From positions 69,613 to 133,612 of the forward strand of contig JAJEAO010000114.1 in NCBI GenBank assembly GCA_022822745.1: DNA of 64,000 nt, written 5' to 3'. The stretch is from Acidobacteriota bacterium. Lineage in GTDB: Bacteria; Acidobacteriota; Vicinamibacteria; Marinacidobacterales; Marinacidobacteraceae. Shown here piece by piece: positions 9,615 to 22,745 of this stretch. Below the pieces are notes generated by a model, which searched no databases, had not been told where the DNA came from, and saw nothing but the letters and a program-made list of their open reading frames with translations. Position numbers and translations under genes: made by a program. The stretch's first letter is position 1; each line of letters starts with the position of its first letter.

Positions 9615-11273
9615 TCAGCCGACGGCTGCGATCCGGGCCCGCTCCTCCAGCGCGATCCGGCGCGTCTCGTCCGGCGAAACGACATCGAACGCCACCTCGC
9701 TGCCGGGCAGCGCCTGCGCGAGACGATGGAGGTCGGGCTCGACGACGACGCCCAGCTTGGGGTATCCGCCGGTCACGCCCTGATCCGGACCCATGACGAT
9801 CGGCTGGCCCGACGCCGGAACCTGGACGGCGCCCGGGGGGCTCCCGTCCGAGACGATCTCGTCCCCGCCGGGAGTGTGGGTCAGACGCGGCCCTTCGAGC
9901 CGCACGCCCATCCGGTTCGAATCGCCCGAAACCCGAAAGCGGAGGTTCGGGAGCTCGGCGAGGCACTGCGGCGGAAAGCAGTCCTCCTGGGGTCCGAGGC
10001 TGATCCGGAGCCGCAGGGCGCCGCTCGCGGGCAGCCGGATGGCCTCCGGCAGATAGCGGTGCTCGCGCGCTCCCGGAGGCTCCGGGCCCACCGGGAGCCG
10101 GTCGCCGGCGCGCAGCCGTCGTCCTTCCAGGCCGCCGAGCCGGGCGAGACGATAGGTGGAGCGCGACCCGAGAACCGCGGGCGCCGCGATGCCTCCGGCG
10201 ACCGCCAGATAGGGCCGGAGCCCCGCCGGCGGGCCGGGAAACCGCAGCACGCTGCCCGCCGGCGCGCGGATGGAGGTTCCGAGCGGAACCCGCCACGGCG
10301 GTCGGCCGGGGAGCTGGAGAACGGCGCGGTGGTCGGCGCCTCCGAGAGCGAAGAGCGCTGCGCCCCGAAAGCGCAGAACCGGCCCCACGAGCGTCATCTC
10401 GAGCCCGGCGGCGGTGTCCGGGTTCCCCACCGCCCGGTTGGCGAGGCGCAACGAGACCGGGTCCGAGGCCCCGGAGCGCGGGACGGCAAGGTGGAGGTGG
10501 CCGAAGCGGCCCAGATCCTGGACGGTGGTCAGCAGCCCGCCCTTCTCGACTTCGATCCGGGTGTCGAAGTCGCCTGTCGGCGCGGGCGCAGGCCGGGTGG
10601 AATCGCTCTCGGGCAGCCGGGAGACCGGCGCGAAGCGGACCACATCCCCCGCGAGGTAGGGGGTGGGGGGTCTCCGGTCGAGATTCCAGAGAAGGCGGGG
10701 ATCCACCCGGCCGAGCACCCGCCACCCGGTCGGCGCCTCCCACGGATAGATCCCGACCTGACGGCGGGCCGTGATCAGCGATCCGGCGGGGACGCGGAGC
10801 CGGGGCGTGGCGCGCCGGGACACATCGAGGCGCGGATCCATCATCCCCATGTAGGCGAAGCCGGGGACGAACCCCATCGCGAGCACGCGGTAGTCCCGCC
10901 CGGCGTGAAGCCGGACCACTTCCTCGACCGGGAGTCCCGACCGCTCGGCGAGGAGCGGCAGATCCTCCCCGTCGTACACGCACGGGATCTCGATGCGCCG
11001 GCGGGGCGGAGGGGCTTCCGGGCTCGCGCGGCGAGCGAGTCGCAGAGCGTGTTTCCGGATGGCCTTCGGGTCGGCGGCCGGGTCGTGGAGAACCAGAACC
11101 GAGCGGTAGCTGGGCAGCGACTCCCGGTAGCCCTCGAACGGCTCCTCGTCGAGGAGCTGCGCCAGCGCCGTCGCCCGCGCGTTCAGTTCGAGAGAGATCC
11201 GATCGCCGAACTCGACGACGAAGGCCGACTCGCCGCCGCCGCGGATCCGGGGTTCGGAGGGGGTTCCGGCCAC
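9615..11273 (-). CDS. pxpBC: 5-oxoprolinase subunits B and C fused (PxpB-PxpC; KipI-KipA / allophanate hydrolase subunits 1+2)
   Basis: N-terminal half aligns with KipI/PxpB and C-terminal half with KipA/PxpC (...GMMDPRLDVSRRATPR... and ...VMGPDQGVTGGYPKLGVV...). It lies immediately upstream of pxpA on the same strand. Confidence 0.8.
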   Translation of the reverse strand: MAGTPSEPRIRGGGESAFVVEFGDRISLELNARATALAQLLDEEPFEGYRESLPSYRSVLVLHDPAADPKAIRKHALRLARRASPEAPPPRRRIEIPCVYDGEDLPLLAERSGLPVEEVVRLHAGRDYRVLAMGFVPGFAYMGMMDPRLDVSRRATPRLRVPAGSLITARRQVGIYPWEAPTGWRVLGRVDPRLLWNLDRRPPTPYLAGDVVRFAPVSRLPESDSTRPAPAPTGDFDTRIEVEKGGLLTTVQDLGRFGHLHLAVPRSGASDPVSLRLANRAVGNPDTAAGLEMTLVGPVLRFRGAALFALGGADHRAVLQLPGRPPWRVPLGTSIRAPAGSVLRFPGPPAGLRPYLAVAGGIAAPAVLGSRSTYRLARLGGLEGRRLRAGDRLPVGPEPPGAREHRYLPEAIRLPASGALRLRISLGPQEDCFPPQCLAELPNLRFRVSGDSNRMGVRLEGPRLTHTPGGDEIVSDGSPPGAVQVPASGQPIVMGPDQGVTGGYPKLGVVVEPDLHRLAQALPGSEVAFDVVSPDETRRIALEERARIAAVG

Positions 11274-11311
11274 GCCGCCGGGAGCGCTCTCGGGCGATGC
11301 GGGTGCGGCGG

Positions 11312-12067
11312 TCAGGTGAGCGGCGCCACCGTCACTCCCGCGTCTTCGAGGAGGCCGCGGACCAGGCGCGCGTTGCCGAGCGCGGCCGGGTTGTCCCCGT
11401 GGAGGCAGAGCGTCTCCGCGTCCAGCTCGACGCGGGATCCGTCGTGAGCCGTCACCGCGCCGGACGCGATCTCGACCGCCTGCGCCGCTGCCCTCTTCGG
11501 GTCGTGGATGACCGAGCCGGGGATGGCCCGCGACTGGAGCGTCCCGTCCGGGTTGTACACCCGGTCGGCGAACGCCTCGCCCGCGTAGCGGAGCCCGGCC
11601 TCGGCCGCCGCGGCCCGCATCGTGGACGAAGTGGCGAGTCCCATGAAGATGAGGTCGTCGCCGACGCGCGCGATGGCGCGGGCGATGGCCGACGCGAGAT
11701 CCGCATCCTTCACCGCCTGGTTGTAGAGCATCCCGTGGGGCTTCACGTGGACCAGCCGCCCGCCGCGGGAGCGGACGAAGGCGGCGAGCGCCCCCACCTG
11801 GTACACGACGTCGGCCTCGACCTCGTCCGGCGAGACCTCGATGAAGCGCCGCCCGAAGCCGCGCAGGTCGTGATGGCCGGGGTGCGCCCCCACGGAAACG
11901 CCGCGCTCCATCGCGAGCTGGACGGTGCGGTCCATGATGAGCGGATCCCCGGCGTGGAAGCCGCAGGCCACGTTCGCCGAAGAGACGATCTCGAGGATCT
12001 CCTCGTCACAGCCGAGGGAGTAGCTCCCGAAGCTCTCGCCCATGTCGCAGTTCAGATCAATGCGCAT
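11312..12067 (-). CDS. pxpA: 5-oxoprolinase subunit A (LamB/YcsF family)
   Basis: MRIDLNCDMGESFG...EIVSSANVACGFHAGDP... is the canonical LamB/YcsF N-terminus; 251 aa. Confidence 0.9.
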   Translation of the reverse strand: MRIDLNCDMGESFGSYSLGCDEEILEIVSSANVACGFHAGDPLIMDRTVQLAMERGVSVGAHPGHHDLRGFGRRFIEVSPDEVEADVVYQVGALAAFVRSRGGRLVHVKPHGMLYNQAVKDADLASAIARAIARVGDDLIFMGLATSSTMRAAAAEAGLRYAGEAFADRVYNPDGTLQSRAIPGSVIHDPKRAAAQAVEIASGAVTAHDGSRVELDAETLCLHGDNPAALGNARLVRGLLEDAGVTVAPLT

Positions 12068-12076
12068 GGCCCGATT

Positions 12077-12694
12077 CTATGGACGAATGGTGTTCGTGGC
12101 GCGGGAGTCGCCGATTCGAGCCCCGGCGCGGCAGTTCTCGTGGGTCACACCTTCGGGGCCAGCGTGGCGCTCGCGACCTCCGCGCCGCGCGGACACCACG
12201 CGCCGCGCCAGTCGCCGGACCACGCCCTGCAACCCCGTGGGGGAAGCCTCCGCGAACGGCTCGATCCCCGTGACCCGGGCGCTGCCGACGCGCGCTGCGT
12301 ATCGCAGCTCGCCGTTGCCACCGACGCTCAGATCGAGGGACCGGTCAGAAGACCAACGCCATTCCAGCAGGGCGTCTCCGTCAGGGTCGAAGGAAACGCG
12401 CGGCAGCCCCAGCACCGGCAGGAGCCGCCTGACGACCCTTTCCGCCCACGCAGCGGAGCGAGGATCGGCCGGAGCCGCTCCATGTCCGTCCCAGTCGTCC
12501 GCGGAGCACTCGCGAAGCGCTTCTCCCAGCACCTGTCGCACCACGCGCCGGAGCTGCGAGTCTGCCACAACCTCGCCTCTCGCCTCCCGCACGAAACCGT
12601 CACGGAAACACTCCGGGCGGGTCAACGGACGACCTCCCACACGTGCTCGCGGGTCATGGACGGGAATGATCCATTGGGCGCTGCCCTCATACAA
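12077..12694 (-). CDS. hypothetical protein (205 aa, no recognisable domain)
   Basis: Full-length ORF with balanced composition between pxpA and the Thx gene; start uncertain. Confidence 0.4.
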   Translation of the reverse strand: MYEGSAQWIIPVHDPRARVGGRPLTRPECFRDGFVREARGEVVADSQLRRVVRQVLGEALRECSADDWDGHGAAPADPRSAAWAERVVRRLLPVLGLPRVSFDPDGDALLEWRWSSDRSLDLSVGGNGELRYAARVGSARVTGIEPFAEASPTGLQGVVRRLARRVVSARRGGRERHAGPEGVTHENCRAGARIGDSRATNTIRP

Positions 12695-12753
12695 GCCTCC
12701 ACTCGAGTCGCGACGCCGTCATGGTGGAGTCCGCGACTCGTATCGGGCCCCGG

Positions 12754-12759
12754 TACAAT
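12754..12759 (+). promoter_or_regulatory. candidate -10 hexamer TACAAT for the Thx gene (possibly leaderless transcript)
   Basis: Perfectly AT-rich TACAAT in a 70%-GC background, ending 9 nt before the ATG at 12769. No convincing -35 or Shine-Dalgarno sequence. Confidence 0.25.
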
Positions 12760-12768
12760 GCCGGGATC

Positions 12769-12855
12769 ATGGGTAAAGGTGACCGGCGCACGAAGCGCGG
12801 CAAGATCTTCCAGGGCACAACCGGCAAGCGGCGGCCGAAGCGGCCGAAGAAGTAG
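12769..12855 (+). CDS. 30S ribosomal protein Thx (bTHX), 28 aa
   Basis: Translation MGKGDRRTKRGKIFQGTTGKRRPKRPKK closely resembles Thermus Thx ([25 protein letters not shown]). It is below the 60-aa ORF-track cut-off and was found by manual reading. Confidence 0.75.
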   Translation: MGKGDRRTKRGKIFQGTTGKRRPKRPKK

Positions 12856-12924
12856 CGCGCCGTCTCGGGACGCCCGGGGGAACTCGGCGGCTCCGGTTCG
12901 GAGGCTGAGGGCGGCGGCCCCGGC

Positions 12925-13839
12925 ATGAACGCCGGGTTCCTGCGCTACCTGGCGGCCAAGCGCACGGTGGATCGGCGTGCGCTGCACCCCGGTGTCGCTA
13001 GCCGCGCCACGGCGGCCGCGCGACGCCTCTCGGAGAGGCGAGGGCCGAGTCGCGCCGTGCGGGTTCTCGAAGTGGGGAGCGGCGCGGGGGGCGCGTTCCC
13101 GGTCTGGCTGGAGCTCCTCGCCCCCTGCCCCCGGATCGAGTTCGTCGCCACCGACGCGGACTCCGACCTCCTCGACGCCGGTCGGGATGCGGTGTCGCGC
13201 TGCGCCGTCGAGTGCGGCCTCGTGGTGGCGGCTTCCGGAACCCGGCGCGTCCGGCTGGAGGGACGGAACCCGGCGCGCCGAATCGAAGTCGTCTTCCGGA
13301 CTGCGAGCGTGCCGGGCGAAGCGGCGGCGGGCCGCTTCGACCTCCTGGTCGCGCAGTCGTTCTGGGACCTCCTGCCGCCGGGCGCCGCGATCGCCTACGC
13401 CCGTCGAGTGCTCGCTCCCGACGGATTGTTCTGTTCGACGCTGACCTTCGCGGGCGAGACGCGCTTCGAGCCGCCCCACGGGCTCGACGAGCCGATCCTC
13501 GCCTCGTACCACCGCAGCATGAGAGGCGACCGCGGCGGAGACCCGCGCGCCGGCGACCGCCTCGTCCGGGACTTCCGGGCGGCAGGGTCGGGGTTCCGGG
13601 TGCTCGCGGAGGGGCCCTCGGACTGGAGGGTGCTGCCGGTGGACCGCGGCTATCCGGGGGACGAGCGGTTCTTCCTCGAGACGATCCTCGGTTTCGTCGC
13701 GAAGGAGACCGGAGCAGACCCGGCCCTGCCCGGCCCCGTCCGGCGCGAATGGCTCACCGATCGCCGCCGCCAGCTCGACGAGGCCCGGCTCGCCTACCGG
13801 GCGCGGCAGAGGGATCTGTTGACCGAGCGGATCGGGTAG
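12925..13839 (+). CDS. class I SAM-dependent methyltransferase
   Basis: Motif I VLEVGSGAGG, with acidic post-I and motif II-like blocks; 304 aa. Confidence 0.7.
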   Translation: MNAGFLRYLAAKRTVDRRALHPGVASRATAAARRLSERRGPSRAVRVLEVGSGAGGAFPVWLELLAPCPRIEFVATDADSDLLDAGRDAVSRCAVECGLVVAASGTRRVRLEGRNPARRIEVVFRTASVPGEAAAGRFDLLVAQSFWDLLPPGAAIAYARRVLAPDGLFCSTLTFAGETRFEPPHGLDEPILASYHRSMRGDRGGDPRAGDRLVRDFRAAGSGFRVLAEGPSDWRVLPVDRGYPGDERFFLETILGFVAKETGADPALPGPVRREWLTDRRRQLDEARLAYRARQRDLLTERIG

Positions 13840-13899
13840 CGACGGGCCGGAGGAGACCGCCCCTTTCCGGAGTGGCGCCCCCGTCTCGCTGCCGGCGGG

Positions 13900-17629: not shown

Positions 17630-18058
17630 GTGATCGAGTACGACAAGTTCCGGCGCTCGCTCGACCGCCTGGAGGAGCAGATCGCTCACTATCGGGGACT
17701 CGGTCCCTCGGCGCCCCGACTGACCCGGGAAGGCATCGCCGAGTCGGTGATCCGGCGTTTCGAGATCTGCTACGACCGCCTCTGCAAGGTGCTGCAGCGG
17801 CACCTGGTGGAAGCGCTCGGAATCCCTCATCCTCCCCACAGCCCGAATCCGATCCCGCGACTGGCTCACGAGAACGACCTCTTCGAGGCCCCCATCGAAC
17901 AGTGGATGCGTTACTCGCGCGCCCGGATCGCCACGCAGCGCGACGGCGACCGCGACCAGGCGCGCGCCGCACTGGACATCATTCCGGACTTCCTCGACGA
18001 CGCGATCACCCTGTACGAGACGATGACGAGAGAGCGATGGAATCTGCGCCAGCCATAG
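17630..18058 (+). CDS. HEPN-domain protein, HI0074-family nucleotidyltransferase substrate-binding protein (HEPN/MNT toxin-antitoxin component)
   Basis: 142 aa; sequence pattern (...RRFEICYDRLCKVLQRHL...) fits the HI0074/HEPN family. It overlaps the downstream MNT gene by 22 nt. Confidence 0.7.
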   Translation: MIEYDKFRRSLDRLEEQIAHYRGLGPSAPRLTREGIAESVIRRFEICYDRLCKVLQRHLVEALGIPHPPHSPNPIPRLAHENDLFEAPIEQWMRYSRARIATQRDGDRDQARAALDIIPDFLDDAITLYETMTRERWNLRQP

Positions 18059-18393
18059 ACATCACCCCTGCCGCCCGTCGGGTTGTCCTGGACCTCATCG
18101 CGAAGCACCTGCCGAACACCGAGGTCTGGCCCTACGGCTCGCGGGTCCGGGGAACTTCCACTCCGAAGTCCGACCTCGACCTCGTGGCCCTTGCGGAGCC
18201 CGACAGCGTCGCCGCCGTCGCCGAGCTTCGGGAGGCATTCGAGGAGAGTTTCCTCCCGTTCCGCGTGGACCTCTGGGTCTGGAAGGAGATCCCTGCGTCG
18301 TTCCGGCAGCAGGTCGCGATGCGCCACGCCGTGCTGGCGCACGGCGACGAATCGAACGAACGCGAAACACAGTCAACGGCAGACGCAGACTGA
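18037..18393 (+). CDS. minimal nucleotidyltransferase (MNT, HI0073-like) partner of HEPN protein
   Basis: GS-x9-12-DxD motif: WPYGSRVRGTSTPKSDLDLVAL; 118 aa. Start chosen at internal Met MESAPAID within the long artefactual ORF 16450..18393. Confidence 0.75.
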   Translation: MESAPAIDITPAARRVVLDLIAKHLPNTEVWPYGSRVRGTSTPKSDLDLVALAEPDSVAAVAELREAFEESFLPFRVDLWVWKEIPASFRQQVAMRHAVLAHGDESNERETQSTADAD

Positions 18394-18424: not shown

Positions 18425-20533
18425 ATGACCGAACCTGAACCCGCCGCCAACCGCGCACTCGATCTCAAGAGCGACGAGGGTCTCCGCGAGGCCTGTCGCC
18501 GCGCCGAAGCAGCAATGGACCCGGAGCGGATCCGCACACTGGCCGACTACCTGAAGCGCGTCCACGACTTTCCCGCCGAGGAACGCTCCTCGCTGGGGTT
18601 CCACGAACTCATCTGGCTGGACGAAACCATCTGGAAGCCGAGACCTGGACATGCCCCCGGTATGGAAGAGATCCTCTCGAGTATCGAGTTCCGGCAGTGG
18701 TTCGCGGACCAGATCGAGGCGCCTCTCGCGGGGTCCGAACCGGCTCACTGGGAGCAGGAGTTCCAGCGCCTGTTTCGGGAAGTTCGCGAGTACAGCGGGG
18801 TCGGGAGGAAGTGGAAACCAAAGCTGGTCGTGCTACGGGGCCTGGCCGCGATCTTCCCGCGCCACCTGAGCGGGGTTGCCCGGACTGGCCACGCTGCAGC
18901 ACTGGCCCGGAAAATGGGGATTTCGACGACCTCGGGAACCGCCGGCACGCGCATCGCCGGCAGACTGGACAAGGTGCTCGGCCCAGTGGGCGACGAGGAC
19001 TGGAAGTCCATCGCAACGCGCATGGAGCTCTCGATCGCTCTCTGGCGGAAGTACGTCCGTGATCCGCGCTACTGGCTCCTCGCCCTCGGTGAGAAGTCGC
19101 ATCGGTGGAAGTCGTGCAAACAGACGGGAGTAGCCACTCTGGGTTGGGACGTCGCCGGTGACCTCAGAAAGTATGCGACAAGGGACGACATTCCGCTGAA
19201 GTCCAATAGCTCGTTGGCCTGCTGGCAATTCTCCCGCGAGATGCAGCCAGGGGACGTCATCTTCGTCAAGCTCGGATCGAGGAGTGTGCTCGGGCACGGC
19301 ATCATCCAGTCGAACTACCGCTTCGAGGGAGAACGTCCGGATCACCGCAACGTGCGCGACGTAGAGTGGCGTTCCGACATGGGGCCCGAGGGGGCGAGGG
19401 TGGACTTCGGTCCTACCGAGATCGAGCAGTTCCCCTTGAAGACCCTGACGAATATCACGAGCTACAGGTTGATACAGCAACAGATTCGGCGCGCCCTCGG
19501 TGTCCTCCCCGGGCCGACTCCTCCGGACCCCAAGCGGCTGATCACGCCGGAGGTTCCCTCGCTACTGACTGTGGTCGAGGCCTTCGAGCGGCTGCGTGAG
19601 GCAGAGGAGCCCCTCAGATTTCCCGCCGAGCTGGTGGAGACACTCCACACCGGGCTGTGGACGGACGAGAGGCGGCACTTTGCGGTGCTCACCGGACTCT
19701 CGGGCGCAGGCAAGACGCGGCTCGCGCTCGAATACGCCAGGACGATCACTGCGGGCGACAGGGACGCCACAGTGACGATCACGGTGCAGCCCGGATGGCA
19801 CGACCCGGCGCACCTCCTCGGCCATGTGAACCCGTTGAATGCGGAGGAGTACTTTCGGACGCCGTTCCTGAACCTGCTGCTCCGCGCGAGGGACCGCCCG
19901 GCGACGCCGCATGTCGCGATTCTCGACGAGATGAACCTCTCCCATGTCGAGCAGTACCTGGCGCCGGTCCTGAGCGCCATGGAGACCGGGGATGCGCTCG
20001 CGCTCCACGAGTCGGACGAGATCACGGATGTCCCGAAGGAGCTTCCCTACCCCTCGAATCTGGTCCTGATCGGAACCGTGAACATGGACGAGACGACGGT
20101 CGGCATCTCGGACAAGGTGCTGGACCGGGCGTTCACGCTGGAGTTCTGGGACATCGAAGTCGAGGAGTGGGCCGGCTGGGACGGATGCAGACTGAACGAC
20201 AAGGACCGGGAGGTCGTCCGAGGCGTCCTCGACGACCTGATGGCGGCGCTGAAACCGGCGCGGCTCCACTTCGGTTGGCGGGTGATCCGGGAGGTCGCGC
20301 GCTTCGTCGAGCGCTCGATCTCGGATGAGATCGCCCGCGACAAGGCGCTCGACCGGGTCGTGTATGCCAAGGTGCTGCCGAAGCTGCGGGGCGACGACTC
20401 CGAACGCTTCCGGACGGCGCTCAAGGCATGCCGGAAGGCCCTCGAGAAGCACGGGCTGATGAAGTGCCGGAGCAAGGTGAAGGAGATGAAGTCCGACCTC
20501 GACGAGACCGGCAGCGTCCGCTTCTGGCGGTAG
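18425..20533 (+). CDS. mcrB: McrB-family AAA+ GTPase (type IV restriction, 5-methylcytosine-type) with N-terminal unknown domain + EVE/PUA-like domain
   Basis: Walker A LTGLSGAGKTRLA, Walker B VAILDEMN, and the McrB-specific block LIGTVNMDETTVGISDKVLDRAF (cf. IIGTMNTADRSLAVVDYALRRRF). Residues about 246-355 (RYWLLALGEKSHRW...GDVIFVKLGSRSVLGHGIIQSNYRFEGE...VEW) match the EVE fold. GGAGGA sits 5 nt upstream of ATG 18425. The first 114 codons of ORF 18083.. are artefact. Confidence 0.8.
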   Translation: MTEPEPAANRALDLKSDEGLREACRRAEAAMDPERIRTLADYLKRVHDFPAEERSSLGFHELIWLDETIWKPRPGHAPGMEEILSSIEFRQWFADQIEAPLAGSEPAHWEQEFQRLFREVREYSGVGRKWKPKLVVLRGLAAIFPRHLSGVARTGHAAALARKMGISTTSGTAGTRIAGRLDKVLGPVGDEDWKSIATRMELSIALWRKYVRDPRYWLLALGEKSHRWKSCKQTGVATLGWDVAGDLRKYATRDDIPLKSNSSLACWQFSREMQPGDVIFVKLGSRSVLGHGIIQSNYRFEGERPDHRNVRDVEWRSDMGPEGARVDFGPTEIEQFPLKTLTNITSYRLIQQQIRRALGVLPGPTPPDPKRLITPEVPSLLTVVEAFERLREAEEPLRFPAELVETLHTGLWTDERRHFAVLTGLSGAGKTRLALEYARTITAGDRDATVTITVQPGWHDPAHLLGHVNPLNAEEYFRTPFLNLLLRARDRPATPHVAILDEMNLSHVEQYLAPVLSAMETGDALALHESDEITDVPKELPYPSNLVLIGTVNMDETTVGISDKVLDRAFTLEFWDIEVEEWAGWDGCRLNDKDREVVRGVLDDLMAALKPARLHFGWRVIREVARFVERSISDEIARDKALDRVVYAKVLPKLRGDDSERFRTALKACRKALEKHGLMKCRSKVKEMKSDLDETGSVRFWR

Positions 20534-20544
20534 GAGGCGCGAAC

Positions 20545-22149
20545 ATGGGCGCCGCCGACCTGGGGCTTCGGGTCGGCCCCGCGGGCGGAGAACTCCGGCC
20601 GCTGACCGGCGAAAAGCCCATCACCGGATTCACCGAGCTCCGTGCAGTCGGCTTCGAGGCACCTTCGGAACTCGAGGGCGACCTCTACGTGGACGACGTG
20701 AAGATGGAGCGAACCCACTCCAGCTGGACCTGGACACCGGGGTTCTACGCCGGCGAAGTCCGCTGCGAGTTCGTCTCCTGCCGCGGTCATTCGCTCGGGC
20801 GATACTGGCTCGATGTCAGTCCCGATCCTTCGAAGCTGGGTCGGGATCTCTTCCATCAGATGCTCGGCGAGATCGCGGATTTCCACCCCGGTCTCCTCGA
20901 AGGCGCCGGGCCGGCGCGCCACACCCTCGGTCCGCTTCGCCGCGATGCGAACCCGACGATCGAATTCGTCCGGCTGCGCCGCCGGACGGGCCGGATCCAA
21001 CGGGCGCTCGCCGAAATCCGGGCGCATCCCATCCGCGGCCTGCGGGACCGGCGCGATCTGGTCCCTCCGCGGCATATGCGGCGCGCCGACCACCGCACAG
21101 TGCGCCTGGCCCTGCGCCGCCGCGCGGCCCGCTCCCTCCTCCTGGACCGAGGATCGGCCAGCCCCGAGCGCGTCCGGTTCGACGTACCCTCGGTGGAACA
21201 CACGCTCGACGCCCCCGCGAACCGGGTGGCGCTGGCGATGCTCCTCGCGCTCATGAGGCGATGCCGGGAAGTCTCCGAGGGGCTCGCCGGGCGCGCGCCG
21301 GAGGATGCGAACCACCACGAGTCGCCCGACTCGGAGCGGAGCCACGAGCGGGCGCGGGCGGAGCGCTGGATCACGATTCTCGATTTGTTCCGGCGCGACC
21401 TCGATCTCATCCGGAGGAAGACGCCGTTCTCGGCCGTCCGCCGGCCGGGGCTCTCCGCCGCGGGGTTGAACGCGGTCTCGGCGCACCCGCTCTACGCCCG
21501 CTTCTACCGGCTGGCGTGGGAGGCCCTGCGCCGCGGTCTCGGTGACTCGCCGGAGGATCCACTGCCGCTGAGCCCAACCTGGGGCCTCTACGAACGCTGG
21601 TGTCTCGCCGCGGTGGCGCGCTGGCTGGGCCATTGGCGAACCGACCTCGGCGGGTGGAGGAAAGCACGGGGCGACCGCTGGCGCAGCCGTTCCGAGGACG
21701 GAGACCTCGACCTGACCCTGACGCTCCAGGCAGCCGCGCCCGGCCCCGACGAGAGTGTTAAAGGGCCGGGGGGCGGAGGACTGTGGTCCGTCTCGAAGCT
21801 GATGCAGCCAGATCTCGTGCTCGAATGGAGGCGCCGCGACGGACGCCGTGGATTCCTTGTCCTCGACGCAAAGTACCGCTCTGGAAGGGACAACATCCTG
21901 AAGGGGATGAAGGAGTCGGCACACGTTTATCAGGACGCCCTGCGGATGGGCGCCCGCCGTCCCGCCGCGACGCTGCTCCTCGTGCCTGACGCCTCCAACG
22001 TGCACTGGCTCGCCGAGGAGGAGTTCGTCCGCGAGCACCGGGTCGGGGCCATCCCGCTTCGCCCCGGGACCGATCCTCCCCCGTGGTTCGGCTCGTTCCT
22101 CGCCGACGCAGTGCGTCGCCACTCGACCCACCAGCACGGAAAGATGTGA
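20545..22149 (+). CDS. mcrC: McrC-family PD-(D/E)xK endonuclease subunit
   Basis: C-terminal nuclease core ...QPDLVLEWRRRDGRRGFLVLDAKYR (D...(D/E)xK). It lies directly downstream of mcrB with GGAGG 7 nt before ATG 20545. Confidence 0.7.
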   Translation: MGAADLGLRVGPAGGELRPLTGEKPITGFTELRAVGFEAPSELEGDLYVDDVKMERTHSSWTWTPGFYAGEVRCEFVSCRGHSLGRYWLDVSPDPSKLGRDLFHQMLGEIADFHPGLLEGAGPARHTLGPLRRDANPTIEFVRLRRRTGRIQRALAEIRAHPIRGLRDRRDLVPPRHMRRADHRTVRLALRRRAARSLLLDRGSASPERVRFDVPSVEHTLDAPANRVALAMLLALMRRCREVSEGLAGRAPEDANHHESPDSERSHERARAERWITILDLFRRDLDLIRRKTPFSAVRRPGLSAAGLNAVSAHPLYARFYRLAWEALRRGLGDSPEDPLPLSPTWGLYERWCLAAVARWLGHWRTDLGGWRKARGDRWRSRSEDGDLDLTLTLQAAAPGPDESVKGPGGGGLWSVSKLMQPDLVLEWRRRDGRRGFLVLDAKYRSGRDNILKGMKESAHVYQDALRMGARRPAATLLLVPDASNVHWLAEEEFVREHRVGAIPLRPGTDPPPWFGSFLADAVRRHSTHQHGKM

Positions 22150-22745
22150 TGTCAAGGTTCTCCGTGATTCCCGGAAATCTGGATGCCAGCGCCATGGAGG
22201 CGATCTCGCCCGCGGCGCTCGCCGCGTACGCGCGCAGGTTGGGTTGGCGCAAGATGGAGCCGTACGGAGACACATCGGATGTGTACGTCCATGACGCGAA
22301 ACCGGAGATCCTCATCCCCCGCACGCAGCGTCTCGCCGACTACGCACGGGTGGTGGCCGCACTCATCGAGGCCTTCGCCGACGAGACCGGCCACGACGTG
22401 TCTTCGGTCCATCGGATGCTCGCGGCAACCGACCCGGACGCGGTGTCCTCTGTGCTTCGGCCGGATGTGCGCCTTCGCGGCTTCGTCAACCGACTGAAGC
22501 GATCGGAAGAGGAGCGAACCGGCACGATCGGCCTGCGAACCATCGTGGACGGGCGGCATCGGTCGGTTCAGGTCGTGCTCCCGCAAGCGGACTACGAGCG
22601 CGCAGCGGAAGCGCACAAGGCGCGCGCCATGGTGGAGATGCGAGGCGACCTGGAACAGTTCGGCCAGCGCTGGCGCCTGCTGAACCCGCGGCTCACCGAC
22701 GTGATCCGGAGCGACGAAGCCGACGATCCGGCGGACGCCGCGTAG
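22149..22745 (+). CDS. hypothetical protein (198 aa), translationally coupled to mcrC (TGATG overlap); third gene of the McrBC-like operon
   Basis: ATG 22149..22151 overlaps the mcrC TGA 22147..22149. Soluble, acidic C-terminus, no recognisable motif. Confidence 0.55.
   Translation: MSRFSVIPGNLDASAMEAISPAALAAYARRLGWRKMEPYGDTSDVYVHDAKPEILIPRTQRLADYARVVAALIEAFADETGHDVSSVHRMLAATDPDAVSSVLRPDVRLRGFVNRLKRSEEERTGTIGLRTIVDGRHRSVQVVLPQADYERAAEAHKARAMVEMRGDLEQFGQRWRLLNPRLTDVIRSDEADDPADAA

Follow-up and report, generated by a model that had tools for sequence, protein, structure and literature searches.

A putative McrBC-type restriction system of the NxD signature-motif branch with a helical N-domain and a cassette-like EVE-type reader

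In a contig of an Acidobacteriota bacterium, we find a two-gene locus that is best explained as a Type IV, modification-dependent restriction system of the McrBC type that belongs to the NxD signature-motif branch, a reading that we hold to be reasonably probable. By analogy, such a system would probably cut DNA carrying modified bases. The observations underlying this reading are the domain folds and motifs of the encoded proteins, their conserved partnership in an operon, and a reader domain that is present or absent in the manner of a cassette. The features of the locus are collected in Table 1, where positions refer to the window, i.e. the whole stretch of 64,000 nucleotides that was analysed.

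Table 1. Features of the McrBC-type locus and its immediate surroundings
Feature	Position (nt)	Strand	Remarks
HEPN (NTase_sub_bind) and MNT nucleotidyltransferase genes	17630..18393 (HEPN 17630-18058; MNT 18037-18393)	+	Pfam; toxin-antitoxin pair directly upstream, context only
McrB-like AAA+ NTPase gene, 702 aa	18425..20533	+	order: N-domain, EVE-like domain, linker, AAA+ module
Clade-specific all-alpha N-domain, aa 1-212	18425..19060	+	
EVE/YTH-superfamily PUA-like beta-barrel domain (Pfam DUF8426), aa 214-358	19064..19498	+	
AAA+ module, aa ~393-702	19601..20533	+	Pfam AAA_5 and AAA_22; alignment to E. coli McrB
Walker A GLSGAGKT, aa 424-431	19694-19717	+	aligns with E. coli McrB motif
Walker B VAILDEMN, aa 497-504	19913-19936	+	aligns with E. 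coli McrB motif
Signature N-M-D-E, N553 to E556	20081-20092	+	motif coordinates in AAA+ module
McrC-like partner gene, 534 aa	20545..22149	+	beta-rich conserved N-terminal ~100 aa, DUF2357, PD-(D/E)xK nuclease
Partner nuclease motifs	PD 21805-21825; DAK 21862-21879	+	PD...DAK intact
Third co-directional gene, 198 aa	22149..22745	+	PADLOC PDC-M02B relative

The ORF of the McrB-like protein is intact, running from an ATG at 18425 to a stop at 20533, with GGAGGA 6-11 nt 5' of the start codon. The catalogued protein P0001, which occurs on four metagenomic contigs, is identical to it; full-length homologues are found at 62% identity, and orthologues of the locus keep the motifs at 62-74% identity over their full length. 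Matches to known families mark the motor as McrB-like, at low scores: Pfam AAA_5 barely reaches its threshold (22.3 bits against a cut-off of 22), NCBIfam McrB gives 14 bits, far under its cut-off of 637, and the only PDB sequences matched by the motor are McrB structures, with those of E. coli at E=8e-4 (20.8 bits over 186 aa, aa 393-578). Together with the gene for a DUF2357 and PD-(D/E)xK protein directly downstream, the AAA_5 and E. coli McrB matches bear out the first-pass annotation in naming the protein an McrB homologue, as far as McrB-likeness goes. The motor itself is not of the classical kind. In an ungapped alignment to the N-T-A-D of E. coli McrB, the canonical NxxD signature is not found; N-M-D-E has a Glu at the position of the Asp, and an Asp one residue earlier. 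This N-M-D-E is strictly conserved across the clade, and an NxD usually followed by E or D is the pattern of the NxD branch described by Bell et al. (2024, eLife, PMC11090510). Moreover, the segment from Walker A to Walker B is 45% identical to the CoCoNuT Type I-A CnuB TBC54486.1 (105 aa, 76.6 bits), and the sensor segment is near-identical in the two proteins ('IGxVNMDETT..S.KVLDRA'). By pairwise score the motor is thus nearer to this CnuB (76.6 bits over 105 aa) than to E. coli McrB (20.8 bits over 186 aa). Based on this identity to CnuB, the motor would be placed with the NxD McrB branch; judged by sequence, it belongs with that branch of McrB GTPases, and not with classical McrB. Since non-CoCoNuT NxD systems were left to a later paper (Bell et al. 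2024, PMC11090510), the NxD sub-clade to which the McrB-like protein belongs is not described in the literature consulted.

The overall plan resembles that of E. coli K-12 McrBC: the operon consists of two genes, of which that of the McrB-like AAA+ subunit (with Walker A and B, and an asparagine sensor) comes first, an N-terminal reader is fused to the motor, and the partner combines DUF2357 with a PD-(D/E)xK nuclease. However, the reader is not DUF3578/MrcB_N, the signature reads N-M-D-E instead of NxxD (N-T-A-D), and sequence similarity is very low, as the scores above attest. The system described here also has the additional 212-aa helical N-domain, and its partner an extra conserved, beta-rich N-terminal region. 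The motor shares with CnuB and other NxD McrBs (PMC11090510) an NxD followed by E, yet none of the coiled-coil, cold-shock, Hsp70 or FtsB-like fusions of CoCoNuTs is present; the McrC nuclease is intact and has no tandem extra nucleases, and what the protein carries instead is an N-domain that is globular and helical, together with an EVE-like cassette. We therefore rejected membership of the CoCoNuTs, in view of the absence of coiled coils, coiled-coil insertions and extra nucleases; the nearby HEPN is of the toxin-antitoxin type, paired with MNT, and is not conserved across loci.

Between the N-domain and the motor lies the domain that would give the protein its specificity. The peptides quoted in the first-pass annotation are found in the McrB-like protein, with residue numbers about 31 too high: 'RYWLLALG' corresponds to aa 215-222 (nt 19067-19090) and 'VEW' to aa 313-315. 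As a consequence, the beta-barrel spans about aa 214-358 and the domain preceding it about 212 aa, rather than 245. Based on the structural model, we assign the middle domain, and with it DUF8426, to the EVE/YTH (PUA-like) fold with high confidence; the match to EVE/YTH folds in the structure comparison is direct. The proposal of an EVE/PUA-like reader therefore holds at the level of structure, and by structure alone, as profile searches do not support it. Pfam EVE (PF01878) has no match in the McrB-like protein even at E<=1, and PDB sequences searched with profiles of the domain returned nothing relevant. In hhalign, only a local match of 37 columns to true EVE segments was obtained (P=3e-4, probability 38%), so that the tie to EVE in sequence is marginal. 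Pfam DUF8426 (PF28530) has a precomputed match on P0001, and its matches are confined to homologues with the 'YWL...GD...VEW' block. Within the domain, W217 (position 8 of alignment A4) is invariant, and at least 90% of the sequences share W228, F269, Y298 and W315. The absence of a DUF3578-type reader is confirmed, with no match of Pfam MrcB_N/DUF3578 (PF12102) in the protein at E<=1. By analogy, the most reasonable reading is that the domain would be a base-specificity module unlike that of E. coli McrB. It should be noted that readers of 5mC in DNA and readers of m6A in RNA resemble the modelled EVE-like fold to the same degree.

How widespread is this reader? DUF8426, for which representatives were searched exhaustively with the EVE-like domain, has 5,775 representative clusters, and an McrB-type AAA_5 module is present in 59 of the 65 sampled. 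The domain occurs overwhelmingly in McrB proteins, often in tandem or adjoining Pfam EVE or MrcB_N, and is found as well as the N-terminal part of the single-gene PADLOC defence candidate PDC-S02. Moreover, among the EVE architectures of defence systems, EVE-McrB is the commonest (Bell et al. 2020, PMC7641849), which means that the architecture is not in itself unusual, contrary to the first-pass annotation. EVE-McrB and YTH-McrB fusions (PMC7641849; archaeal McrB N-domains 6n0s and 6p0g) likewise carry a PUA-like reader of EVE/YTH fold N-terminal to an McrB-type motor, and the fold match to them is direct. DUF8426 is nonetheless a separate sequence family, missed by Pfam EVE and often found beside a true EVE domain in one protein, and the reader lies here inside the protein, preceded by another domain and followed by the motor. 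Single-chain, modification-dependent restriction enzymes of the PUA/EVE-nuclease kind (e.g. VcaM4I EVE-HNH; PADLOC candidate PDC-S02) differ in that the effector of the present system is a separate, AAA+-driven McrC-like nuclease, not one fused to the reader.

The EVE-like module is a block of ~160 aa, and orthologues at the same syntenic chromosomal locus are without exactly that block; within the gene, it is the part with the lowest GC. Only 10 of the 120 retrieved homologues carry it. The 548-aa orthologues, consisting of N-domain and AAA+ module only, retain the McrC-like partner and look intact, while 912-aa relatives have the block at the extreme N-terminus, and Pseudomonas-type relatives of ~750 aa have an insert of ~200 aa. 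Both the EVE-like cassette and this Pseudomonas-type insert would be exchangeable specificity add-ons in our reading.

In contrast to the cassette, the N-domain is found in 113 of the 120 homologues, with or without the EVE-like block. It is modelled as a compact globule of 11 helices. The description of this region as devoid of recognisable motifs stands, shorter as it is than supposed: its profiles have no PDB sequence match, and no member has a Pfam match at E<=10. In an alignment of 27 sequences, only W64 and P145 are invariant, and neither a helix-hairpin-helix (HhH) GxG hairpin nor a catalytic Asp or Lys is conserved. Foldseek returned nothing significant (best E=0.28, TM-score <=0.32), with HhH-GPD glycosylases accounting for 12 of the top 50 weak matches. 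The N-domain is similar to such glycosylases (Ogg2/Tm1821, EndoIII, AlkA/Mag) in its size (~210 aa), its all-helical build and these recurrent weak matches, but shares with them no sequence similarity, and the likeness in Foldseek is not significant. The 'GVGRK' at aa 126-130 was considered as an EndoIII-type HhH hairpin and rejected; it is conserved in no homologue, and is hence judged a coincidence. A 326-aa protein (P0272) that could have been a standalone N-domain turned out to be an McrB-like gene truncated by an IS element. So what would be the role of this domain? Throughout the clade, it would most likely serve as a second, constitutive module for nucleic-acid binding or regulation. 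A bolder idea, to which we give a modest chance, is that it descends from an HhH-GPD glycosylase, is catalytically dead and reads bases by flipping them, which would make the sub-branch a 'dual-reader' Type IV family.

The gene of the McrC-like partner has an RBS and an ATG, and starts 12 nt past the stop codon of the McrB-like gene. Its Pfam scores lie around the cut-offs, at 23.1 bits for DUF2357 (cut-off 23.3) and 22.5 bits for PDDEXK_7 (cut-off 22.1). A partner of this kind was present in all six loci that were examined, which range from Acidobacteriota-like MAGs to Pseudomonas, and PD...DAK is conserved in it. The 198-aa third gene is probably not part of the system: of the PDC-M02B profiles, which have ~380 positions, it matches just the two ends; no more than its C-terminal 90 aa are seen again at locus L004, where a 265-aa ORF has them at 74% identity; and it is absent at loci L005 and L008. 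The HEPN-MNT pair is also upstream at L004 and L008, and not at L005, L007 and L009. PADLOC recognised no complete known system at the locus. Membership of PDC-M26 was rejected, as only the AAA core matches PDC-M26A (positions 334-433 of a 724-position profile, E=6.5e-38) and the partner has no PADLOC match. The locus lies in a low-GC islet beside the HEPN-MNT pair and a defence-candidate remnant, within DNA of 70% GC. Scans for tRNAs and Rfam families yielded no more than two ordinary tRNAs, distant from the locus.

The mechanism that we propose is modelled throughout on E. coli McrBC and on readers of the EVE, YTH and SRA type. Nucleic acid would be bound by the N-terminal modules of the McrB-like subunit, and the modified base, possibly a methylated or hydroxymethylated cytosine or a methyladenine, would be flipped out and held in the pocket of the DUF8426 domain with its EVE/YTH fold. 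The AAA+ module is predicted to form a ring that hydrolyses NTP once engaged by the DUF2357 domain of the partner, whose PD-(D/E)xK nuclease would then cut the DNA. Against this explanation count the marginal tie of the domain to EVE in sequence, the AAA_5 score at its threshold and the NCBIfam McrB score far below its cut-off, and the lack of a complete known system by PADLOC.

We must however take into account that RNA, and not DNA, might be sensed or cut. In that case, the YTH-like barrel would recognise m6A or another methylated base of RNA, and instead of restricting incoming DNA the system would give an abortive or translational response. RNA reading has been predicted for the related CoCoNuT systems (Bell et al. 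2024, PMC11090510), with which the motor shares the NxD branch, and directly upstream there is a gene of the HEPN family with the same orientation. Nevertheless, the McrC nuclease of RNA-targeting CoCoNuTs is typically inactivated or missing (Bell et al. 2024, PMC11090510), whereas the DNA-nuclease motif of the partner is intact in six of six loci. Coiled coil, cold-shock domain and SmpB-like domain are all absent, the HEPN is of the HI0074/NTase_sub_bind type with an MNT antitoxin and is missing from three of the six related loci, and the DUF8426 family adjoins DNA-reading MrcB_N domains in canonical McrBs. Taken together, we consider RNA as the target quite improbable.

An alternative within the restriction framework is that the helical N-domain, possibly as a dead base flipper of the HhH-GPD type, is the real target-recognition module, the EVE-like cassette being an accessory that widens or tunes specificity, or even dispensable. 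Its near-ubiquity, set against a reader block in 10 homologues, the apparent intactness of the 548-aa orthologues and the glycosylases among the weak structural matches would all fit this. However, these matches fall short of significance, no Pfam or PDB sequence match is obtained, the GxG hairpin, Asp and Lys are not conserved beside the invariant W64 and P145, and a role in oligomerisation, regulation or phage-protein sensing is equally possible for the domain, so that we regard this alternative as unlikely. Finally, the locus may no longer have a function and be no more than a remnant, inactive or in decay, considering that the third gene resembles an internally deleted PDC-M02B relative and that one family member elsewhere is truncated beside an IS element. 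Both main ORFs, however, have their full length, proper RBS and spacing, and every catalytic motif in intact form, and the full-length orthologues conserve the motifs as well, which leaves decay very improbable.

If the locus is indeed an NxD-branch restriction system, it adds little to the general principle, as the combination of an EVE-type reader with an McrB motor is common and already described. Less ordinary are the motor of the little-studied and biochemically uncharacterised NxD type (PMC11090510), the undescribed helical N-domain and the cassette-like EVE block. The locus provides a tractable system of the NxD branch, being compact and free of coiled coils, with its nuclease intact and only two genes, and DUF8426 is a large and unstudied family of putative readers. 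The N-domain is of interest for its possible link to DNA glycosylases: if true, a constitutive sensor derived from a glycosylase would be joined by second readers of a plug-in kind, such as the DUF8426 cassette or the ~200-aa Pseudomonas insert, and the pair of loci with and without the cassette would constitute a natural experiment in specificity switching. With natural orthologues that have or lack the reader cassette at one chromosomal site, the contribution of each module can be tested cleanly. It is by Type IV restriction systems that bacteria determine the modified DNAs of phages and plasmids to be rejected, and tools for the detection of DNA modifications can be drawn from the reader domains of these systems.

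On comparison with 120 homologues, the McrB-like protein divides into three blocks: an N-domain (aa 1-212), a middle block (aa ~214-358) and an AAA+ motor (aa ~393-702). Its plus-strand reading frame has a formal TTG start at 18083 and its stop codon ends at 20533; the ATG at 18425, with GGAGGA 6-11 nt 5' of it, is the plausible start of the gene and gives 702 aa. Four metagenomic contigs, including one of 180 kb, encode an identical protein (P0001). A local Pfam scan of the protein returned nothing beyond general AAA models, at aa 416-556 (AAA_22, and AAA_5 with 22.3 bits where the cut-off is 22), with no match to EVE or to MrcB_N/DUF3578, and its sole PDB sequence matches were McrB motor domains (E. 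coli McrB, E=8e-4, aa 393-578, 20.8 bits). Walker A (GLSGAGKT), Walker B (VAILDEMN) and the sensor asparagine align with E. coli McrB.

In the precomputed annotation, PF28530 (DUF8426) falls on exactly those homologues that have the middle block. Run exhaustively against 1.84 billion representative proteins, the middle-block profile had 5,775 matches at E<=1e-3, 2,164 of them at E<=1e-10. Among 65 sampled top matches, 59 carry a canonical McrB AAA_5 module, 10 an additional Pfam EVE domain and 3 MrcB_N, while tandem duplication or triplication of the block occurs in 16 of 148 top matches. PDC-S02, a single-gene candidate of PADLOC, has DUF8426 at its N-terminus as well; in RefSeq, plasmid proteins bearing the domain have no more specific name than ‘AAA family ATPase’ or ‘DUF3578 domain-containing protein’, and we found no mention of DUF8426 in the literature. 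The first-pass annotation had proposed an EVE/PUA-like fold here, quoting peptides that are indeed present in the protein but numbered ~31 residues too far along (‘RYWLLALG’ is aa 215-222, ‘VEW’ aa 313-315). Profile searches give this proposal little: neither Pfam nor the PDB profile searches, which came back empty, link the block to EVE, and hhalign, given 36 true EVE segments that belong to the same set of McrB proteins, yielded only a 37-column match (P=3e-4, probability 38%), centred on a ‘GD-hhh...G-G-h-V’ hairpin. It is fold comparison that bears the proposal out, with scores of 11.3 for PH1033 (1wmm_A; presumably an EVE-family protein), 9.4-10.2 for YTH domains (YTHDC1, YTHDC2, Mmi1, MRB1, CPSF30, YTHDF1, CPSF4), 10.1 for the EVE-HNH restriction enzyme VcaM4I, 8.1 for THYN1 with bound 5mC DNA, 7.2 for ASCH, and 6.2 and 5.8 for the McrB N-domains of Staphylothermus marinus and Thermococcus gammatolerans. 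By this comparison, the middle block is an EVE/YTH-fold domain and the proposed fold is right, although the profile searches that the first-pass annotation suggested as a check would not have borne it out. To call the architecture unusual on that account was an overstatement, since EVE-McrB, which occurs in nearly 300 genera, is the commonest EVE architecture among defence systems (Bell et al. 2020, PMC7641849), and a census of ~34,000 McrBC systems took this as its basis (Bell et al. 2024, PMC11090510).

The block also varies between relatives. Aligned with P0001, P0002 and P0003, the homologues P0010 and P0011, ~65% identical overall to the window protein, are without one contiguous block corresponding to its aa ~213-375. 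At the same chromosomal site in locus L008 (HEPN-MNT upstream; aminotransferase, citrate synthase and DAO oxidoreductase downstream), the McrB-like gene encodes only 548 aa. The order N-domain, middle block, AAA+ is seen in the window protein and two proteins 62% identical to it, and proteins of ~548 aa have the N-domain joined to AAA+. In relatives of 912 aa from the same lineage, the middle block lies at the extreme N-terminus, followed by the N-domain, a ~200-aa insert and AAA+, and proteins of ~750 aa from Pseudomonas and Stenotrophomonas, named ‘McrB family protein’, have N-domain, insert and AAA+. Within the McrB-like gene, which has 64.9% G+C against a window mean of 71.6%, the middle block is lowest at 60.7%; the low-GC dip spans the entire 17.6-22.7 kb stretch. 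Whether by insertion or by loss, the EVE-like block is an exchangeable module. The ~200-aa insert (P0058, P0013, P0004 etc.; aa ~230-440 in P0058) occupies the same slot as the EVE-like cassette of the window protein. It has no Pfam match, conserves the motifs ‘LNPLPA.RR..G...GG ... LT.RGE..LE.GD ... RILG.D ... NPGW ... LT..G..WA.RI.W.P’, and by eye resembles tandem winged-helix domains.

Of the 120 homologues retrieved, 113 have the N-domain; outside the clade, none of 148 DUF8426-bearing representatives does. Neither the single sequence nor a 27-sequence profile matched Pfam or PDB sequences. Its AF2 model is a compact bundle of ~11 helices (pLDDT 90.5), for which Foldseek gave no significant match (best E=0.28); HhH-GPD glycosylases (Mag2, MutY, MUTYH, OGG1, MjaOgg, EndoIII) made up 12 of the top 50 weak matches. 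Two methods point to the HhH-GPD superfamily, which is suggestive and falls short of proof. Across the aligned family, neither a GxG hairpin nor an Asp or Lys is conserved; W64 and P145 are the sole invariant residues, and near-invariance extends to L14, L20, F59, P132, R138, T149, G186, R199, L202 and L206. If derived from a glycosylase, the domain would be non-catalytic.

The signature motif of the motor, N553-M-D-E556, is invariant in the five closest aligned homologues and at least 90% conserved over 74 family sequences, whereas canonical DUF8426-McrB proteins have N-T-A-D. In a major McrB branch, NxxD is shortened to NxD, with E or D as the usual next residue, and none of its members has been characterised (Bell et al. 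2024, PMC11090510). CnuB of a Type I-A CoCoNuT from that branch (TBC54486.1, Supplementary file 3 of the same study) aligns with the window protein at 45% identity across the 105 residues that link Walker A and Walker B (76.6 bits, against just 20.8 bits for E. coli McrB), and the segment ‘IGxVNMDETT..S.KVLDRA’ is common to both. Counted from N553, the conserved D and F further downstream lie at the same distance as in E. coli McrB, so that NxxE plus one additional D is another possible reading of the motif. Judged by its sequence, this is an NxD-type motor. A CoCoNuT proper was rejected, as coiled coil, cold-shock domain, inactivated nuclease and extra nucleases are all missing; with every hallmark absent, this would be an NxD-branch system outside the CoCoNuTs, a group left for future work by Bell et al. 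2024 (PMC11090510).

In all six loci examined, including Pseudomonas locus L007, an McrC-like partner follows the McrB-like gene. For the partner in the window, Pfam gives DUF2357 just below its cut-off (23.1 against 23.3 bits) and PDDEXK_7 just above (22.5 against 22.1), and the nuclease core ‘PD...x~15...(L/I/A)DAKYR...ESAH.Y’ is kept across six aligned partners. Outside DUF2357, the N-terminal ~100 aa conserve ‘W.W.PGFYAGEV...LDVSP’ in six loci and are probably beta-rich; they may represent the Ig-like beta-sandwich of NxD-branch McrC homologues, in which such a domain has been reported (Bell et al. 2024, PMC11090510). In L007 (Pseudomonas sp., CP072913.1), the clade member adjoins a Macro-domain protein gene, and an 882-aa N6_Mtase/Eco57I-like gene lies nearby on the opposite strand; the latter fits the methyltransferase association noted for non-CoCoNuT NxD systems (Bell et al. 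2024, PMC11090510). Locus L010 is a disrupted copy of the system: its family member P0272 is broken off just past Walker A, an IS (DDE_Tnp_1) adjoins on the opposite strand, and split DUF2357 and PDDEXK_7 ORFs follow downstream.

Features of the McrB-like locus and of related loci
Feature	Position	Strand	Remarks
Variable defence islet	~13.9-26.9 kb		ispG/gcpE, merB and doxX on one side; aminotransferase and citrate synthase on the other
330-aa product, annotated in L001	16390-17646	-	Gly-rich repeats; C-terminal beta-strand-like pattern ending ‘YRF’
HEPN-MNT toxin-antitoxin pair	17630-18393	+	HEPN (NTase_sub_bind/HI0074-type), 142 aa; MNT nucleotidyltransferase, 118 aa
McrC-like partner	ATG at 20545	+	12 nt past McrB-like stop; GGAGG RBS; 534 aa
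Partner N-terminal region	20545-20850	+	~100 aa
198-aa gene	22149-22745	+	overlaps McrC-like stop
L004, 121-aa DUF4365 ORF and 265-aa ORF	11736-13374		position equivalent to 198-aa gene
L007, clade member and neighbourhood	9891-13866		Pseudomonas sp.
L010, P0272	6001-7793		326 aa

The HEPN and MNT genes overlap by 22 nt and end 31 nt ahead of the McrB-like start; L004 and L008 also have the pair ahead of the orthologous gene, and L005, L007 and L009 lack it there. The 198-aa product matches the ~380-position PADLOC PDC-M02B profiles at its N- and C-terminal ends only (E=3e-42), and the last 90 aa of the 265-aa ORF in L004 are 74% identical to it; these genes resemble remnants of a single PDC-M02B-like defence gene, each decayed in its own way. 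Across related genomes (L004, L005, L008) the McrB-like variant in the islet is one of 548 aa or of 702 aa, and extra genes may or may not accompany it; in L005 the 912-aa variant lies on the opposite side of the aminotransferase, adjoining a SIR2_2 gene. The 330-aa gene is kept at the same position in L004 and L008, and its product, without a Pfam match, may be an outer-membrane beta-barrel protein.

Folds, motifs, a conserved operon and modularity were all observed, and the best-supported reading of the locus is a Type IV, modification-dependent restriction system. By analogy with E. coli McrBC and with EVE, YTH and SRA readers, a modified base would be recognised by the EVE/YTH-fold reader, perhaps together with the N-domain; the NxD-type AAA+ ring would hydrolyse NTP upon engagement by the partner's DUF2357 domain, and the DNA would then be cut by its PD-(D/E)xK nuclease. 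Because the nuclease is intact and RNA-linked domains are absent, we favour DNA over RNA as the target. Numbering aside, the first-pass annotation was essentially correct in what it observed and partly right in how it interpreted it. What is new relative to the published descriptions that we found is the combination of an NxD-branch motor with a clade-specific helical N-domain, possibly of glycosylase-like fold, and a DUF8426 reader that behaves as a cassette at an orthologous locus.
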